Assembly: GCA_023898585.1 (NCBI GenBank)
Contig: CP060229.1
Span: forward strand, 11,388-75,387
Origin: Candidatus Nomurabacteria bacterium
GTDB taxonomy: Bacteria > Patescibacteriota > Minisyncoccia > Phycocordibacterales > UBA918
DNA: 64,000 nucleotides
Direction of reading: 5' to 3'
The first letter of the stretch is position 1. The number at the start of each line of letters is the position of its first letter. A model generated the notes under the pieces. That model saw nothing but the letters and a program-made list of their open reading frames with translations, made no database searches and was not told the DNA's origin. Shown here piece by piece: positions 4,229 to 47,967 of the stretch. A program made the position numbers and the translations under genes.

Positions 4229-5785
4229 ATGTATACGGTAGATCAGATTATCTCCAAACTAAACGACCCTAACCAGGCCGATGGTGATCTCATAAGAAAG
4301 GCTTATAACTATGCCTCAGAGGCGCACAAAAATCACAAGCGTTACTCCGGGGAGCCTTACATGACTCACGCCGCCGCAGCCGGCTACAAACTGGCCGCCA
4401 TGGGTATGGGACCGAGAACCATTTGCGCGGGACTGCTTCACGACACAATAGAGGACACACCGGTAACTTCCGAAGATATAGATCGCGAATTCGGAGACGA
4501 GGTGCTATTTTTAGTCGAAGGTGTGACTAAACTAAGTTCGGTTCGGTATTATGGCACCGATCGTCACAACGAGAGTCTTCGTAAACTCTTTGTCGCTACC
4601 AGTCAAGACATCAGAGTTCTTATCATTAAACTGGTTGATCGTCTTCACAACATGGAGACCCTCAGTTATGTACCGGAAGAAAAACAAAGAAGAATCGCTC
4701 GTGAGACTTTGGAAATTTACGTACCAATTGCCCATCGGTTGGGTATGGGGAAACTGCGTAAAGAACTGGAGGATTTGGCTTTTCCTTATGTTTATCCCGA
4801 AGAAGCTAAAAGAGTAAAAAAGACTTTGTCATCAAGATTTGGAAACGCCAACGAAGTCTTGGAAAAAGAAAGAAAAACTCTTCAAAAAAGACTAGCTGAG
4901 TTGAAACTGACAGACTTTAACACTTCATACCGAGTAAAAGGATTATACAGTCTGTACCACAAACTAAAGATTAAAGAATGGGATATAAACGCCATATATG
5001 ATCTTCTGGCCATGCGCGTAATAGTAAATTCGGTGGAAGACTGCTACCGGACATTGGGCATAATTCATGAGTTATGGCGCCCGTTACCAAAAAGAGTGAA
5101 GGACTATATTGCTTTTCCTAAGCCAAACGGCTACCAATCACTCCATACTACTGTCACCACTCAAAACAGTGTTATCTTGGAGATCCAAATTCGCACCAAG
5201 CAAATGCACCAAGAAGCGGAATTTGGAGTCGCTTCACACGTTTTTTATAAACCACCAACCGTATCGGATAACTCCGGTGAGAAGAAACCTTCCATGTTTT
5301 CCAGCCTCGTTCCTGCCCTGTTTCAGCCTTTCTCAAGACGTGAGACAGAATCCGAAAAAAATCTCGAGAAATCAGCCTCAACCCCCCACAACCAAAAGAT
5401 ACCGCGTTGGATATCGCAAATTGGACAAACTTACCATCACGAGTCTAAAAATCCCACCAGTAATTTTGTCGAAGATGCGGAATCTGATTTCTTTTCCAAT
5501 CGTATCTTCGTCTTCACTCCCATCGGCGATGTGGTGGATTTACCGGTTGGTGCTACGCCGATAGATTTCTCATACGCAATCCACTCGGAAATAGGCGACC
5601 ATACTTTTGGTGCGAACGTAAACCGAAAACCAGCCCGTCTGGATAAGGAGTTAAATAATGGGGACATCGTGGAAATCGTGACCAGAAAATCGGCCAAACC
5701 AAGTCCAAAATGGCTACATTTCGCCAAAACTTCAGTGGCACGAAAACATATCCGCGCCGCCATCGAACAGTCAAACAAAATCTAA
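4229..5785 (+). CDS. rel: (p)ppGpp synthetase/hydrolase RelA/SpoT homolog (HD + synthetase + TGS; no ACT/RRM tail)
   Basis: HD motif LLHDTIEDT, synthetase motif YDLLAMRVIV, TGS-like IFVFTPIGDVVDLPVGATPIDFSYAIHSEIG. 518 aa from ATG 4229 is shorter than typical Rel. Confidence 0.85.
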   Translation: MYTVDQIISKLNDPNQADGDLIRKAYNYASEAHKNHKRYSGEPYMTHAAAAGYKLAAMGMGPRTICAGLLHDTIEDTPVTSEDIDREFGDEVLFLVEGVTKLSSVRYYGTDRHNESLRKLFVATSQDIRVLIIKLVDRLHNMETLSYVPEEKQRRIARETLEIYVPIAHRLGMGKLRKELEDLAFPYVYPEEAKRVKKTLSSRFGNANEVLEKERKTLQKRLAELKLTDFNTSYRVKGLYSLYHKLKIKEWDINAIYDLLAMRVIVNSVEDCYRTLGIIHELWRPLPKRVKDYIAFPKPNGYQSLHTTVTTQNSVILEIQIRTKQMHQEAEFGVASHVFYKPPTVSDNSGEKKPSMFSSLVPALFQPFSRRETESEKNLEKSASTPHNQKIPRWISQIGQTYHHESKNPTSNFVEDAESDFFSNRIFVFTPIGDVVDLPVGATPIDFSYAIHSEIGDHTFGANVNRKPARLDKELNNGDIVEIVTRKSAKPSPKWLHFAKTSVARKHIRAAIEQSNKI

Positions 5786-5794
5786 AAAAGCTGT

Positions 5795-7219
5795 TTAGAC
5801 GGTGAAATTGTTTATTGAGTAAAGACTACTTTCATCCTTTGTCTCTTCGTCTTTTTTAGTGATGTGTGATGGTGGTTGTTCAACAGAATCAGGAGCGACT
5901 CTTTCTTCGGTAGCTGGATTGATCGTGGTAGCTTGATTTTCAATCCTTTGATCATAATCATCACCGCCTAAACCACGAACGACACTTGGTGTTTCCTCCG
6001 GCCTGGTTGCGACTTCCTGTTTTGAATATTCAACAACACTTTTTTGATTTCCGGTCTCTTCAATTTGGTTGTGCTGATTTTGTTCAGCACTGACTGAATA
6101 ATGCCCGCCTATAGTTTGCGACACGATGGTTACGTTTGGTGACCGATATACCGATCCAGGTTCAATCCTGGACACCGCCTGCTTTCCGAACTCAGATGTT
6201 TGTCCTGTTTGATATTGAGTTTGTGACTGCGATGGTTCATCTGCAACTGGCTGTTTCGAAGATTCAGGAACTTCTTGAAGTTGATCTGGTTCTGGAGGTA
6301 AAATTTCACTTTCAGACTTATAATCAGTCTCCAGCGGAGTGTGTTCGGCTAAGTGTTCAGCCATTTCTTTTTGGCCGGTTTCTTTAGCAGACGCTTCGTC
6401 ACTCATTCTCTTCAAGATGGAAGCCAGGTCATCCTCTGAAAAATAGTCGATGGTAAGCTTGCCACCAAAATCGGTTTTTTGAATCTGAACTCTTGTTCCC
6501 AACGTCTCAGTAAATTGTCTCTCAAATTCTATCAAATTGGCATCAAATTCATCGGGGTCTTTCTTTCGCACTTTATCAGTGGCTATTTTTCGGACAATCC
6601 TTTCCACTTCACGAACCGATAATTTTTTAAGCAGGATTTCTTTGTAGACCACCTCCTGTTCTTCCAGACGATCGGAAAGCATGAGTAAAGTTCTCGCGTG
6701 TCCCTCAGTCATATCGCCAAGCTTCAAAGACTCCAACATATGCTCAGGCAAGCCAAGCAAACGAATTGTATTAGACACATATTCTCGACTGCGACCAACT
6801 TTTTTGGCAACTAAAGCGTGAGAAAGACCAAAAACATCCGCTAATTGCTTAAATGCGATCGCTCTATCAACAGCGTTCAAGTCCTCACGCTGGAGATTTT
6901 CTATGATGGCCAACTCCAACTTTTCTTGTTCATTCTGTTCACCTTCTCGAATAATAACCGGGACTTGCAGGACTCCAGCGAGCTTACTGGCTCGCAGACG
7001 TCGTTCCCCGGCGATCAATTCATATTCCGTATAAAATGTCCCGTTTTCCTGCTGAACTTCATTTCTAGTGACGGTGAGTGGCTGAAGCACGCCATACATA
7101 CGAATAGAATCCGCCAGTTCCTGCAGTTTATTTTGGTCGAATTCTCGACGCGGTTGAAAAGGATTGGGGACGATTTTCTCGACCTCTACCCAATAGATTG
7201 AATCTCCCTGAAATGCCAT
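5795..7219 (-). CDS. parB: ParB/Spo0J-family partition protein with long low-complexity C-terminal extension
   Basis: ParB box GERRLRASKLAG and HTH in N-terminal ~280 aa; C-terminal ~190 aa Q/E/S/T-rich. Confidence 0.85.
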   Translation of the reverse strand: MAFQGDSIYWVEVEKIVPNPFQPRREFDQNKLQELADSIRMYGVLQPLTVTRNEVQQENGTFYTEYELIAGERRLRASKLAGVLQVPVIIREGEQNEQEKLELAIIENLQREDLNAVDRAIAFKQLADVFGLSHALVAKKVGRSREYVSNTIRLLGLPEHMLESLKLGDMTEGHARTLLMLSDRLEEQEVVYKEILLKKLSVREVERIVRKIATDKVRKKDPDEFDANLIEFERQFTETLGTRVQIQKTDFGGKLTIDYFSEDDLASILKRMSDEASAKETGQKEMAEHLAEHTPLETDYKSESEILPPEPDQLQEVPESSKQPVADEPSQSQTQYQTGQTSEFGKQAVSRIEPGSVYRSPNVTIVSQTIGGHYSVSAEQNQHNQIEETGNQKSVVEYSKQEVATRPEETPSVVRGLGGDDYDQRIENQATTINPATEERVAPDSVEQPPSHITKKDEETKDESSLYSINNFTV

Positions 7220-43605: not shown

Positions 43606-44046
43606 ATGATTAGATTTTATTCACTATTTGTTACGGACGATAAGCTACTGGCAAGTCCGTATATTCGACGTTTCAACCTATTTCATGATTTGACTCTTCA
43701 TCTAGGAAAAGAGGAGGTCGTTCATTTCTTATTACAAACTCCCATAACAGAAAAACAACAGCAAAACTTGAACGTAATATTTGACCCGTTATCATTCGGA
43801 CTTTCTAAAGTTGAGGTCAAATCGTTTGAACATCAAACTTTAATAACAGTGACACTCACCCCCAAAGAACTAGGCTCGATGAAACTTGGGTTTACTTTCC
43901 CTCAAACTGAACACGAAAACGATAGTCACCTTAAAAAAGTTCCTTCGCCCTTTACTTCTGTGCCATGCTTGAGTTTTGGCTCCAGATATCTGACAAACAA
44001 AAGAAAGGCTGGTTTATCACGCCGGAAAAAAGTTTCCGCTAAGTGA
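43606..44046 (+). CDS. hypothetical protein (low confidence ORF)
   Basis: 146-aa ORF, no motif, weak RBS. Confidence 0.3.
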   Translation: MIRFYSLFVTDDKLLASPYIRRFNLFHDLTLHLGKEEVVHFLLQTPITEKQQQNLNVIFDPLSFGLSKVEVKSFEHQTLITVTLTPKELGSMKLGFTFPQTEHENDSHLKKVPSPFTSVPCLSFGSRYLTNKRKAGLSRRKKVSAK

Positions 44047-44224: not shown

Positions 44225-44300
44225 TGGTCCCATCGTCTAATGGTCAGGACGTCAGGTTTTCATCCTGGAAATCGGGGTTCGATTCCCCGTGGGATCACCA
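44225..44300 (+). tRNA. tRNA-Glu (anticodon TTC), CCA encoded
   Basis: Acceptor GGTCCCA/TGGGATC (one G-U), anticodon loop TTTTCAT, T-arm CGGGGTTCGATTCCCCG. Confidence 0.8.
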
Positions 44301-44306
44301 TTGACA

Positions 44307-44349
44307 GCTAGCTGTTTATGGGTCATATTATGACCCATAAACAGCTAGC
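44307..44349. repeat. 43-bp perfect palindrome immediately 3' of tRNA-Glu
   Basis: GCTAGCTGTTTATGGGTCATA-T-TATGACCCATAAACAGCTAGC. Confidence 0.8.
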
Positions 44350-44357
44350 CCAAATCA

Positions 44358-44393
44358 ACACAAAAGCCACTCATTTTTGAGTGGCTTTTGTGT
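44358..44393. terminator. hairpin terminator for the minus-strand gene cluster ending at 44402
   Basis: ACACAAAAGCCACTCA-TTTT-TGAGTGGCTTTTGTGT. Confidence 0.55.
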
Positions 44394-44401
44394 TGATTCC
44401 C

Positions 44402-44817
44402 TTAGATTGTCTCTAAGAAACTTTCAATGTCTGGATATCGTTCATCGAACATCAAATAAAGAGTTTCAGGTTTCTCTACCTCCCCAATTAAAATCATCTT
44501 TTTACCAAATCCAAACGAAGCACCGGCTTCCATGTGTGCAGCCAAACCAGCAGGTAACAACATAACGATAGTATCTGCGTTCTTAAGACCATCCATATCA
44601 GTTTCAAAGTGATTCTGATGGACTGGATCGTTCCAAAAGTCGGGATGAGATCCGGTATCTCCATTTGTTTTTCCCAAGGCAGGTCAGGATTATCTGGAAC
44701 GGCTGGTTTATGGAGGAAGTTGTAGCAAGTGAACCCTTTAGCCTCAATACCATCAACGAGTCGTTGGATATTCTCAGAGTTACGAACTCTACCGATTACC
44801 ATATAGTCAGTTTTCAT
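44402..44817 (-). pseudogene. nucleoside 2-deoxyribosyltransferase-like (NDT/Rcl fold) gene with internal frameshift
   Basis: Two overlapping frames (44494..44817 and 44402..44677) together give an NDT-like protein: MKTDYMVIGRVRNSEN...; downstream frame NADTIVMLLPAGLAAHMEAGASFGFGKKMILIG resembles the NDT nucleophile-Glu region. Confidence 0.5.
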
Positions 44818-44821
44818 AAAA

Positions 44822-45211
44822 CTATTTTAGTACTTTAATTAAATCTTCTGGTGTAGTGAAGTAACCTCTGAACAGGACACTCCTGCACAATTCTTCGTCT
44901 TTGTCCGAAAAGGCATAAATCGGCTTTTTAGTTGCCATGGCATAACCAATTTCTAGCGTAGTGCTGTTACCACTGTATCCGTCTTTGTTGTATACAAATA
45001 CGACATCTGCCATCTCAATCTTATGAAAATGGTCGTGAGTTAGTCCTAGAGCAGTAAACTTTTTGTACTGATCTGATAGTTTCTCCCACTCGTCTTTACC
45101 CTCATGAAGATACTGAGCAAACACAACCACTCCTAATTCTTGCAGTCTCTTGGCGAACTCCACAATTTCTGGACGATAACGACGGCTACCGCAAATAACT
45201 ACTGATCTCAT
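44822..45211 (-). CDS. nucleoside 2-deoxyribosyltransferase-like protein (NDT/Rcl fold)
   Basis: ICGSRRY N-terminus and ADVVFVYNKDGYSGNSTTLEIGYAMATKKPIYAF. Confidence 0.55.
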   Translation of the reverse strand: MRSVVICGSRRYRPEIVEFAKRLQELGVVVFAQYLHEGKDEWEKLSDQYKKFTALGLTHDHFHKIEMADVVFVYNKDGYSGNSTTLEIGYAMATKKPIYAFSDKDEELCRSVLFRGYFTTPEDLIKVLK

Positions 45212-45750
45212 ATTTTTTTCTCAATGTCTTTAAAGAGGGATAATCCATCCTCATCTAGTAACGTCGGAATGAACTTTGACGCCTCTTGCTCGTCTAAGTT
45301 GAGTAAGGTAGTGACAGGATACGAAACAAACCCAAGAGCCTTACCCGCCTCAACAGTAAGGTCTTCTATAGCAACTTTTCTCTTGAGCAGATAAATATTG
45401 CGTCTTGGATGGTTGGTCATTCCTGTAACTTCATCAAAACTATTTCTTATTTCAGTTCGTAGAAAAATCAGCTCGCTAGGTTCGGCATCAAGTCCGGTCT
45501 CTTCCTTAAGCTCTTTAATGGCTGACTCCTCGTAAGTTTCTCCTAAATCAACATGACCTCCGGCAGTGGCGTCTAGTAGGTCTGGGTAGGTGTCTTTATC
45601 TTTAGCTCTATGCTGAAAGATCAATTCATTTTCTGGCGTAACGCACCACACATGGACCTCACCATGTAGCAATCCTTTCTGGTGAATTACATCTCGGTAT
45701 TCTTGACCGAGTATATTTCCTTGTTCGTCTAGAATGTTCAGTTTTTCCAT
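45208..45750 (-). CDS. NUDIX hydrolase
   Basis: Nudix box GGHVDLGETYEESAIKELKEETGL. Confidence 0.8.
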   Translation of the reverse strand: MEKLNILDEQGNILGQEYRDVIHQKGLLHGEVHVWCVTPENELIFQHRAKDKDTYPDLLDATAGGHVDLGETYEESAIKELKEETGLDAEPSELIFLRTEIRNSFDEVTGMTNHPRRNIYLLKRKVAIEDLTVEAGKALGFVSYPVTTLLNLDEQEASKFIPTLLDEDGLSLFKDIEKKI

Positions 45751-45752
45751 AA

Positions 45753-46334
45753 TTATTCTTCGATGGCATTAATATCAGCTAGTTCATTCTCAGCTTTCTC
45801 CCAAGGGAAAATGGTAATACCATCTCTCAATCCTAGTTCTTTTGCTTCCTCTGGTGTCGCCTTAAAGTTTTCATTGGTCATTGTCCCATAAAAGATACCG
45901 TCGATATCCTCCAAAGTTTCAAATCCTCCGTACACTTTTGAAAGGGTTGCCAAGTAGACTTTCGCCTTGGGGTACTTTTCTTTGATTGCCTTTGCCGCTC
46001 GCTTAGCAATAGACCCTGAGCTGGTATTACCCTCTGCTAAAATTACGTTCATCTCTTCAGGAACATCAACCAAAATGTCGGACACAGAAATAATCTGTGT
46101 GATTTCAGTAGGATTGTAGGAATATTTGAACTGTACTGGCAAGAGTGGCACCACCTCCATCTTTATTGCTAACACACTACCAACGATGCCGCCGGTCCTG
46201 TGTAGCTGAGAGATGACATGGACTTTATCAGTACTACCAAAGTGATCTGTTATTTTCTGTATCAAAACATCAATGAGTTGGTCAAACTCATGCCAGCTCA
46301 TTTGGTTCGTGTCTTTTTCTGTGTATTTATTCAT
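45753..46334 (-). CDS. phosphoribosyltransferase-like (type I PRTase fold) protein
   Basis: PRPP-loop-like NVILAEGNTSSGSIAKRA (degenerate VLLVDDVLTTGGT pattern). Confidence 0.4.
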   Translation of the reverse strand: MNKYTEKDTNQMSWHEFDQLIDVLIQKITDHFGSTDKVHVISQLHRTGGIVGSVLAIKMEVVPLLPVQFKYSYNPTEITQIISVSDILVDVPEEMNVILAEGNTSSGSIAKRAAKAIKEKYPKAKVYLATLSKVYGGFETLEDIDGIFYGTMTNENFKATPEEAKELGLRDGITIFPWEKAENELADINAIEE

Positions 46335-46337
46335 AGT

Positions 46338-46730
46338 TTATCTCTCCCATTGGGTTATGTGTGGCGAAAAGTCCACCTGATAATCTGGAATACCGAGTGA
46401 GATACCGTACTCAGTCGCTTTGTCATACTGAGCCTTATCGGTCCTGTCAGTTACATGAAATACCTTGTCACGATAAATGATGTAGTGCTCAGTATCAGAC
46501 TTAAAATCTGCGTACCAATCATGTTCTGGATCAAGTGCGTGGCTAATTTTCTCAGCTACGAGAGATGCTCTATCAGCATCAATCTCAACATTGTGCATGG
46601 TCCATTGTTCTACCCACGGAGTCTTATGACCCTCTGTAACCGACTCAACTTCGGTAGATGCAATCGTTACATCATCTAGGACCGATGTATCAACTAGGCT
46701 CTCCTCGATAATTACTCCAATGAATTTCAT
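46338..46730 (-). CDS. hypothetical protein
   Basis: 130-aa acidic ORF co-directional with and 3 bp from the upstream gene. Confidence 0.45.
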   Translation of the reverse strand: MKFIGVIIEESLVDTSVLDDVTIASTEVESVTEGHKTPWVEQWTMHNVEIDADRASLVAEKISHALDPEHDWYADFKSDTEHYIIYRDKVFHVTDRTDKAQYDKATEYGISLGIPDYQVDFSPHITQWER

Positions 46731-46894
46731 ACTTCAATTTATCTAACCTAACATTCATAATCTCTGAGTAAACAAAGAGAGCCGTGCCGGACACCCTTTC
46801 TTGACCTGTCTCTATCACCATATCAAACTTCACTACAAAGAGGACAGAAACTTCTTTTTAGTTAATCGTCCTCTTACTGAGCACAAAAAATGGA

Positions 46895-47047
46895 AAAAAT
46901 GGTGTCAGAGGAAAAAATGGTGTCAGAAAAAATGGGGAAAAATGGTGTCAGGGAAAAATGGTGTCAGGTACCTTTTTTAGGTCTTCCCCTCCCTCTAGAG
47001 GGAAAAATGGTGTCAGGTACCTTTTTTAGGTCTTCCCCTCCCTCTAG
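46895..47047 (+). repeat. REP-like tandem repeats: five copies of AAAAATGGTGTCAG, last two extended to a 48-bp unit
   Basis: AAAAATGGTGTCAGGTACCTTTTTTAGGTCTTCCCCTCCCTCTAG twice in tandem, preceded by three shorter copies. Confidence 0.75.
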
Positions 47048-47678
47048 TAGTAGCGTCAAGGTCATACTTATCAATCATATCGCCCGACCACTGCTCTCCT
47101 CCGAACGGCTTACCTTTGTTCACCGAATAACGAGCGACTTCTAGTTCTCCAGCAGTTAGGGGTGTGTGGATAAAATCTTCGTAGTCTCTAGGGAGTGCTA
47201 CTGGTAGTTTCGTTAATAGATTAGCTTTGTTGTTCTCTCTTCTATAGAAACTAGAATACTTCCAGTTATTCAGGTTTTTGACTAGCTTGGCCCTAAGTGG
47301 ATTTCGTTCAACATACCTAATGACAGTTAGCAGGTGTTGATCTTGTTCAATGAGGAAAGATTTATATCGCCCTTGGTACAAGTGCCCTGAACCGATGGTT
47401 TTATTCTGTACGTGCCATCTTTGCGTGTGAGTGAGAGTAAGCCACTGCATAAAACGCTGGAGGTCCCCATCCTTTTTGGGATACAAGATAAGATGGAAAT
47501 GATTAGGCATGATGCAGTATGCAATGATGCGCATATCGTACCTCTCAGCAGCATCTTCCAAGATAGACTCGAACAATTGATAGTCCTCCTCTTTGAAGAA
47601 AATCTTTAGTCTGGCATTGGCACGGTTGATTACGTGATACACCTCGTTACCCACATCTACTCTTGGTACCCTGCCCAT
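47013..47678 (-). CDS. HUH Y1 transposase, IS200-like / REP-associated tyrosine transposase (RAYT)-like
   Basis: N-terminal MGRVPRVDVGNEVYHVINRANARLKIFF (YHV..R.N.R..IF pattern) and HUH motif IMPNHFHLIL; flanked by inverted REP-like repeats. Confidence 0.75.
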   Translation of the reverse strand: MGRVPRVDVGNEVYHVINRANARLKIFFKEEDYQLFESILEDAAERYDMRIIAYCIMPNHFHLILYPKKDGDLQRFMQWLTLTHTQRWHVQNKTIGSGHLYQGRYKSFLIEQDQHLLTVIRYVERNPLRAKLVKNLNNWKYSSFYRRENNKANLLTKLPVALPRDYEDFIHTPLTAGELEVARYSVNKGKPFGGEQWSGDMIDKYDLDATTRGRGRPKKGT

Positions 47679-47698
47679 ATGTGTATTGTATCAGAAAA

Positions 47699-47717
47699 GG
47701 TACCTGACACCATTTTT
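47699..47717. repeat. inverted copy of the REP-like unit on the other side of the RAYT gene
   Basis: GGTACCTGACACCATTTTT is the reverse complement of AAAAATGGTGTCAGGTACC. Confidence 0.75.
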
Positions 47718-47967
47718 CACAATACCCCACTGTTTTCAGAGTCTACGAATAAGGACGATTTTTAGCTTTTTTAATTGTACTTTATTTTAAGAGTATTGTC
47801 AAGTAATCGTAATGCTCCGCAGGTAGGATTCGTCCCGCTTTTTCTAATTCACTACGTTCATAAGAACGCTGGACGCAGCTCGCTCGTTTTCTGCTCTAGG
47901 GATGAGCAGAAAACATCACTCCGCTTTTCGAATCCTAACGCAAGACACGAAGGTGTCTTGCTCCTGC

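Follow-up and report, generated by a model that had tools for sequence, protein, structure and literature searches.

A probably native row of nucleotide-metabolism genes beside tRNA-Glu in a Nomurabacteria genome, with a NUDIX-NDT core that recurs in Patescibacteria

Are small genes for nucleotide-processing enzymes, packed between a tRNA gene and a transposase gene, cargo that came in from elsewhere, or part of the resident metabolism? This question is raised by five co-directional genes on the minus strand (44402-46730) of a 64-kb stretch of contig CP060229.1 from a Candidatus Nomurabacteria bacterium (the window, to which all positions without a locus name refer). In the order of transcription, these are U130, which encodes a small acidic protein; PRT, a phosphoribosyltransferase gene; a NUDIX hydrolase gene; and NDT2 and NDT1, both of the NDT/DrHyd superfamily. 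Adjacent genes lie 2-4 nt apart or share 4 nt, a single terminator follows the last one (NDT1), and a tRNA-Glu gene is convergent with the row. An earlier interpretation made from the letters alone (the sequence-only reading) had listed the tRNA-Glu gene, a palindrome, a hairpin, the gene row, and a transposase gene flanked by repetitive extragenic palindromes (REPs), all of which were found where it had placed them; it took the block for horizontally acquired cargo, with a role in either nucleotide salvage or anti-phage defence. The analysis described here indicates instead that the row is probably a native, vertically inherited, operon-like set of small nucleotide-metabolism genes. Its functional core is likely formed by NUDIX, NDT2, and NDT1, a unit recurring in Patescibacteria that here lies downstream of PRT and U130. 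What looks like a defence system or a horizontally transferred island would, accordingly, be native metabolism with one dead gene.

Among the relative loci and contigs that were fetched (L-numbers; proteins carry P-numbers), the nearest ones, L022/L023/L027 and L025/L026, have NUDIX, NDT2, and NDT1 in syntenic arrangement, together with the terminator and a convergent tRNA-Glu gene. Identity to the window's proteins is 86-88% for NDT1, 86-91% for NDT2, and 70-82% for NUDIX, and the outer flanks differ from those of the window. No palindrome, RAYT gene, PRT, or U130 was found at the syntenic site in either group. Because the adjacency to tRNA-Glu is shared with relatives that have none of these at the site, it is best taken as ancestral to these lineages and not as an insertion scar. 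Thus, the conserved synteny that would speak against acquisition was found for the NUDIX-NDT2-NDT1 triple, and PRT and U130 join it only in the window's species. As the latter two sit elsewhere in relatives, the five-gene row as such is specific to that species. The families of the row are widespread in Patescibacteria (about 55-90% identity, near-constant length). Its composition was compared with that of the window, which gave z values of 0.3-1.3 for codon-usage log-likelihood and of -0.6 to -1.5 for GC content, and a tetranucleotide distance at the 85th percentile of same-sized window chunks. The deviation in GC content and codon usage expected of acquired DNA was, therefore, not observed; by all three measures the row is native.

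Linkage between NUDIX and NDT genes was surveyed over all fetched loci with hidden Markov models built from the family alignments and with a Nudix-box pattern. Of the ~24 lineages with upstream sequence, 7 have a NUDIX gene as the immediate upstream neighbor of NDT1 or of an NDT2-like gene. The adjacent gene is orthologous in the window, L022, L026, and L049, and non-orthologous to the window's in L031, L035, and L043. Open reading frames (ORFs) with a Nudix box occur at 0.024 per kb in the fetched loci, and ~0.4 chance adjacencies were estimated among the ~24 lineages. As seven adjacencies stand against ~0.4 expected, the linkage is far above chance. It is reinforced by a row of four genes in L031 (1958-3686), a more distant relative, in which NDT2, the non-orthologous, MutT-like NUDIX gene, a third NDT-like paralogue, and NDT1 follow one another in this order. 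PRT of L013 has a NUDIX gene as its immediate upstream neighbor.

The NUDIX gene of the window (45208-45750, minus strand) encodes a hydrolase of 180 aa. Its earlier assignment is borne out by a match to PF00293 (E 2e-11; 44.4 bits, cut-off 21.1) and by an intact Nudix box (GX5EX7REUXEEXGU), which reads GHVDLGETYEESAIKELKEETGL at residues 65-87, with K replacing R. Among solved structures, it matched YfcD (2fkb, E 3e-8) and DR0079 (1q27, E 4e-6), the latter of which we take to prefer (d)CDP and (d)CTP. All NCBIfam equivalog models remained below their cut-offs for this protein (e.g., 53.3 vs 152 bits for YfcD and 48.8 vs 127 bits for IDI).

NDT2 (44822-45211, minus strand) is intact and encodes 129 aa matching PF05014 (E 6e-7; 30.0 bits, cut-off 28.8), as do 25 of the 26 members of its family alignment; 1662 representatives are related to it at E<1e-3. 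Residues N75, G81, and E87 are invariant, Glu87 being part of the sequence LEIGYA, and the N-terminal loop, ICGSRR, presumably resembles the phosphate-binding loop of Rcl. The NDT2 profile retrieved the solved NDTs 6evs (E 5e-5), 4hx9, and 1f8x from the PDB, and E87 aligned with the Glu that is the nucleophile of solved NDTs (6evs and 4hx9). At E≤1, an Rcl/DNPH1 chain was matched in the PDB neither by the sequence of NDT2 nor by the profiles of NDT2 and NDT1. Of the label "NDT/Rcl-like", which the sequence-only reading had given to both genes, the first half is thus carried by the matches to PF05014 and PF15891, and the specific relationship to Rcl is not. Several metagenome proteins (P0397, P0403, P0414, and P0387) contain two or three NDT2-like domains in tandem, with repeats of the form "ICGS...YIGxST..E..YA". 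Two-domain proteins of this kind were considered as NDT1-NDT2 fusions, which was rejected, as they are NDT2-NDT2 repeats and constitute no evidence for a heterodimer.

NDT1 (44402-44817, minus strand) is split over two frames in the window, as had been noticed before and was confirmed by alignment with orthologues; it corresponds to a protein of 138 aa of the NDT/DrHyd superfamily (PF15891-like). The window's fragments reached only 18.7 bits in the Pfam search. Intact orthologues carry PF15891/PF05014, and one of them, P0121, matches phrog_12607 at E 5e-14. In the family (178 homologues, those listed being mostly 133-143 aa long), an H-M-E-A-G motif is invariant, including E97, which aligned with the "HVEIG" motif of MilB. 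The closest solved structures to the family profile are the CMP/hydroxymethyl-CMP N-glycosidases MilB/BlsM (E 5e-3). From these similarities, NDT1 and NDT2 are putative N-glycosidases or base-transfer enzymes acting on nucleosides or nucleotides.

DNA alignment with intact orthologues placed the lesion of the window's NDT1 in the codon for Glu56, as a deletion of 1 nt between plus-strand positions 44650 and 44651; the window reads GAGATACCGGA-TCT where relatives have ...CTAGAGTCA. A frameshift at the A5 run was rejected, as the deletion lies ~20 nt downstream of it in this alignment. The block recurs with this very lesion in three other assemblies, L001 (an NCBI metagenome-assembled genome [MAG], in which every matched gene is 100% identical to its counterpart in the window), L002 (Logan), and L003 (ENA), two of which stem from other samples; in L003, an additional nonsense codon (TCG>TAG) follows downstream. 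A sequencing error was rejected, because the lesion is not in a homopolymer, is identical in the three other assemblies, and is accompanied by the extra nonsense codon in L003. Programmed frameshifting was rejected as well, given this nonsense codon and the lack of a slippery heptamer at the lesion. The identical lesion and the decay seen in L003 identify NDT1 of the window's species as a fixed, decaying pseudogene, to judge from these alignments.

Loss of NDT1 is not confined to this species. The gene is broken independently in ~7 of 30 sampled lineages: beside the deletion in codon 56 of the window, we found GAG>TAG at codon 56 in L029 (954-1343), a frameshift near codon 13 in L033, a deletion plus a frameshift in L048, several lesions in L049 (where NDT2 is missing), an in-frame deletion of ~62 codons in L051/L052, and a frameshift near codon 72 in L053. 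The equivalent DNA-pattern scan for PRT gave nine loci, all of them intact (9/9), a contrast for which the sample is too small for firm statistics. The Glu56 codon was struck in two separate lineages, by the deletion in the window and by the nonsense mutation in L029, which could be coincidence or a mutational hotspot. The "mini" NDT1 of L051 (3182-3427) and L052 (3676-3921), from which approximately codons 17-80 are deleted, is probably a remnant, although its frame is still open and both the GRxRN loop at the N terminus and the catalytic half with HMEAG are retained.

PRT (45753-46334, minus strand; 193 aa) has no Pfam match, including PF00156, which was matched by 1 of the 120 homologues listed. 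The AlphaFold2 (AF2) model of the protein (pLDDT 87.7) was compared with the PDB by Foldseek; the best match was the purine phosphoribosyltransferase (PRTase) of P. horikoshii (1vdm, E 2e-10, TMt 0.84), followed by the S. solfataricus APRT/HGXPRT, the H. pylori XGHPRT, and the E. coli XGPRT. Apart from two PyrR entries, nearly all of the top 50 matches were purine PRTases. GpT-1 (4trb, E 7e-4), a purine PRTase of S. solfataricus, was also matched by a profile built from 24 homologues. HRTGGIVG, (L)xEGNTSSG, and FPWE are conserved motifs and lie where they would be expected. The putative loop for phosphoribosyl pyrophosphate (PRPP), "NVILAEGNTSSGS", has the right position and a conserved S/T-G pattern, with E-G replacing two acidic residues. 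Because profile match, predicted fold, and conserved motifs agree, PRT is, as modelled, a divergent type I purine salvage enzyme of the Gpt/XGPRT class missed by Pfam, which sharpens its previous description as PRTase-like. Its 125 homologues (52-100% identity) are labeled Paceibacterota or Parcubacteria.

The catalytic equipment of the row is intact as regards Glu87 of NDT2, H-M-E97 of the NDT1 family, the Nudix box, and the motifs of the putative PRPP loop of PRT. If the products act according to their families, NUDIX would trim scavenged or surplus (d)NDPs and (d)NTPs, or another nucleoside-diphosphate compound, to (d)NMPs. The NDT/DrHyd-family enzymes would then, by means of the conserved Glu nucleophile, cleave the N-glycosidic bond or exchange the base attached through it, and the Gpt-like PRTase would attach freed purine bases to PRPP, again yielding NMPs. 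The net effect would be interconversion and recycling of nucleotides. Several observations weigh against such a native pathway encoded in one operon. This order of reactions is inferred from family chemistry and not from substrates of the five proteins. Co-transcription is putative, and a scan for sigma-70 promoters upstream of U130 found no consensus promoter, a scan that may not suit promoters of the candidate phyla radiation (CPR). PRT and U130 were beside the triple in no relative examined, so that their presence here may be coincidental. The window and the fetched loci share no housekeeping orthologues against which the 76-91% identity of the triple could be gauged (the 90% clusters of the flanking proteins contain only the window's species), and the triple may have been transferred in ancient times. 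Finally, the recurrent breakage of NDT1 described above marks this gene as dispensable, and the NUDIX orthologue of a sister lineage is frameshifted in the metagenome assemblies L025 and L026 (965-1506; KDKD|TYPDLLD), in which NDT2 and NDT1 beside it are intact. With NDT1 dead in ~7 lineages and NUDIX frameshifted in L025/L026, the NUDIX/NDT module looks conditionally dispensable, though it is strongly conserved where intact; such dispensability is as compatible with an accessory role as with housekeeping.

Four other explanations have to be weighed against the native row. A serious alternative to salvage, if an unlikely one, is sanitation of the nucleotide pool, in which NUDIX would turn non-canonical or modified (d)NTPs into (d)NMPs and the NDT-like N-glycosidases would destroy these irreversibly. 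Such a role, for which we would see little probability, would be akin to that of DNPH1 on hydroxymethyl-dUMP or of MilB on hydroxymethyl-CMP and would bar scavenged modified nucleotides from DNA and RNA. It would agree with the involvement of non-orthologous NUDIX genes in the recurrent adjacency to NDT-like genes, with MilB/BlsM being the closest solved structures to the NDT1 family, and with DR0079, of assumed cytidine-nucleotide preference, being among those closest to NUDIX; recurrent pseudogenes, too, would suit a cleaning function that depends on the niche. The similarities to these PDB entries are weak and do not settle what the substrate is, however, neither NDT profile found an Rcl/DNPH1 chain, and modified and canonical substrates are not distinguished by the present data. 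Rather improbable is the juxtaposition by chance of five unrelated housekeeping genes in a compact genome, without any shared pathway. The neighbors of PRT do differ in all relatives examined (nine GTDB genomes and three further lineages), those of U130 differ as well (GrpB, TPR, or none), and NDT1 is solitary in most of the lineages with ≤80% identity. What chance does not account for is a NUDIX-NDT linkage recurring far above expectation, a triple kept with terminator and tRNA gene in relatives, a NUDIX-PRT adjacency seen again in L013, and the fact that nucleotides are the substrate class of all four assignable products.

The two explanations favored by the appearance of the locus fared worse. 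A genomic island gained by horizontal transfer, with tRNA-Glu as its insertion site and the RAYT element as its border, is suggested by a block that adjoins a tRNA gene and a lineage-specific palindrome of 43 bp, by the transposase gene at its far border, and by outer flanks differing between lineages. The marks of an island targeted to a tRNA gene are absent, nevertheless: no integrase was found among the ORFs and Pfam matches of the window, a repeat search found neither a second copy of the 3′ end of tRNA-Glu nor an att-like direct repeat, and codon usage, GC content, and tetranucleotides do not deviate. Adjacency to tRNA-Glu is, moreover, common to relatives without RAYT, palindrome, PRT, or U130 at the site, and to our knowledge RAYTs mobilize REPs and carry no cargo genes. 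An island is thus very unlikely, and the tRNA-Glu gene, the hairpins, and RAYT/REP are neighbors of the row rather than parts of a mobile island. Likewise remote from the evidence, and highly improbable, is an anti-phage or NAD+/ADP-ribose conflict module, in which NDT/DrHyd-like NADases or nucleotide-depleting effectors would have NUDIX and PRTase partners. Domains of these types also occur in retron effectors. DrHyd/NDT-like, NUDIX, and PRTase-like domains are found in conflict systems (PMC9503650). The distribution of NDT1, patchy and with frequent inactivation, would be compatible with such a role. PADLOC-DB 2.0 contained no significant match for any protein of the block, the two weak ones (ThsB for NDT2, E 0.004, 14 bits; PDC-S07 for NUDIX, E 5e-4, 18 bits) being generic and at the level of the fold. 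A sensor, NTPase, reverse transcriptase, or nuclease partner is missing from the row, whose near-constant protein lengths and identities of 65-90% across the phylum are unlike those of fast-evolving defence genes; its composition is native, and no relatives of the NDT1, U130, and PRT profiles were found in the 2.9 million viral contigs of IMG/VR. The fold of PRT, finally, matches true purine salvage enzymes, in support of the salvage alternative that the sequence-only reading had also offered. Its notion of acquired or defensive cargo consequently fails in most respects; PRT and U130 having joined the triple and NDT1 having been lost recurrently do fit its term "accessory".

U130 (46338-46730, minus strand), previously noted as a small acidic protein of no assigned family, which it remains, comprises 130 aa with an isoelectric point of 4.5 and has no Pfam match. 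There are 898 homologues; the 120 listed are mostly 130 aa long and 68-79% identical, and none of these 120 has a Pfam domain. In the AF2 model (pLDDT 79), the N-terminal half is ferredoxin/ACT-like, and structure searches of PDB and BFVD as well as profile searches returned nothing significant. By its homologues, U130 is to be regarded as an unannotated, very conserved family of Patescibacteria. Its gene overlaps that for GrpB (PF04229) by 4 nt in the complete Nomurabacteria genome CP060231 (L059, 6001-6914), lies near a TPR gene elsewhere, has a pair of NUDIX genes and the gene for a YfbR-like HD phosphohydrolase in its vicinity in L024, and stands alone in L020. The Nomurabacteria MAG L060 contains two U130 paralogues ~1 kb apart (4539-4931 and 6001-6393).

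On the other side of the row, the tRNA-Glu gene (anticodon UUC; 44226-44300, plus strand) was identified by ARAGORN and by the Rfam tRNA model (63.1 bits), and in the Rfam search around the row it was the only RNA to pass, with no riboswitch or other RNA found. Directly 3′ of it lies the perfect palindrome of 43 bp (21+1+21; 44307-44349), which occurs once in the window, 0 matches being expected by chance. It is followed, between the convergent tRNA-Glu and NDT1, by a perfect hairpin with a stem of 21 bp (44353-44398), which has runs of A and T on its flanks and folds as a bidirectional intrinsic terminator. The joint folding energy of the two hairpins is -68.7 kcal/mol (z = -17). At the place of the terminator, L022 and L026 have an analogous hairpin that differs in sequence, and the palindrome was not found in the homologous spacer of these two loci; as far as this comparison reaches, it is specific to the window's lineage. 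The convergent tRNA-Glu gene at the same position in L022/L023 and L025/L026 has the anticodon CUC (L022, 1718-1792; L026, 2401-2473) instead of UUC, and its anticodon stem shows compensatory differences to that of the window. Either the anticodon was switched or the gene was replaced by a different isoacceptor. Upstream of tRNA-Glu, between it and a thioredoxin-reductase-like gene, an ORF of 146 aa (43606-44046, plus strand) matches no family significantly; with only three members in its 90% cluster, it appears to be species-specific.

At the far border of the row, the description as a REP-flanked HUH transposase is upheld by a match of the encoded protein to PF01797 (E 9e-19), by its motifs HFH at residue 60 and YVERNP at residue 122, and by inverted REPs of 24 nt. 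Against the NCBIfam model REP_Tyr_transpos, this RAYT-type Y1/HUH transposase (47013-47678, minus strand) scored 79.3 bits, which is borderline at a cut-off of 80. A REP-like array (46885-47047, plus strand) consists of degenerate AAAAATGGTGTCAG units followed by a perfect tandem duplication of 49 bp (46950-47047), each copy of which holds a 24-nt REP (46953-46976 and 47002-47025). The inverted REP on the other side of the gene (47695-47718, minus strand) is 100% complementary to both, so that inverted REPs bracket the RAYT gene. The duplication overlaps the 3′ end of the ORF, the last ~11 codons for the transposase being REP sequence, and its junction forms the palindrome CCCTCTAGAGGG. Within the window, the REP was found only next to RAYT; in L002 and L004, the contigs break at the RAYT/REP point, which hints at repeats elsewhere in the genome.

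Patescibacteria (CPR) are widely described as unable to synthesize nucleotides de novo. The handling of scavenged nucleotides would, therefore, be central to their dependent lifestyle, and the locus adds three poorly annotated or unannotated families found across the phylum, namely the Gpt-class PRTase, the NDT-like protein of 138 aa, and U130. The recurrent linkage of NUDIX and NDT-like genes is amenable to biochemical testing. Tentatively, and with a probability we consider low, a two-step module may be envisaged throughout Patescibacteria, conditionally dispensable, in which one to three small DrHyd/NDT-like N-glycosidases receive the product of a NUDIX pyrophosphatase and particular scavenged nucleotides are irreversibly dismantled to base and sugar phosphate, with NDT1, the key member, repeatedly lost when the host or the niche renders it superfluous or harmful, and U130 as a further player. 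If this were true, its targets would be, for example, modified or deoxy-cytidine-type scavenged nucleotides. Literature searches found no specific description of a NUDIX/NDT cluster in CPR, and nothing relevant on nucleotide salvage and PRTases of Parcubacteria.

Compared with known systems, the components of the locus are divergent new members of the NDT/DrHyd, NUDIX, type I PRTase, and RAYT superfamilies. The transposase resembles other RAYT/REP systems in its Y1_Tnp domain, its HUH and YxxxNP motifs, and the inverted REPs on both sides; it departs from the norm in that the window's REPs are confined to its surroundings and that a REP lies in a 49-bp duplication overlapping the ORF. With Gpt, 1vdm, GpT-1, and HGXPRT, the PRT protein shares an RTGG similar to the pyrophosphate loop and, near the C terminus, (F)PW(E/D), and it has a candidate PRPP loop (E-G-N-T-S-S-G) at the expected position, whereas its identity to PRTases of the Gpt/1vdm class is only 13-18%, E-G takes the place of the usual acidic pair, and ~35 residues are inserted C-terminally before the FPWE motif. 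NUDIX, of the YfcD/DR0079/IDI-like branch, has an N-terminal extension that aligns with YfcD and DR0079, yet it is the orthologue of no characterized enzyme. NDT2 carries its catalytic Glu in the (L/M)E(I/L)G(Y/F)A motif shared with NDT/DrHyd enzymes (PF05014 and PF15891; Lactobacillus NDT, MilB/BlsM). Unlike the characterized members of that superfamily, NDT1 and NDT2 are short (138 and 129 aa) and only distantly related to them, and unlike in the known systems, the two paralogues are encoded in tandem behind a NUDIX gene.

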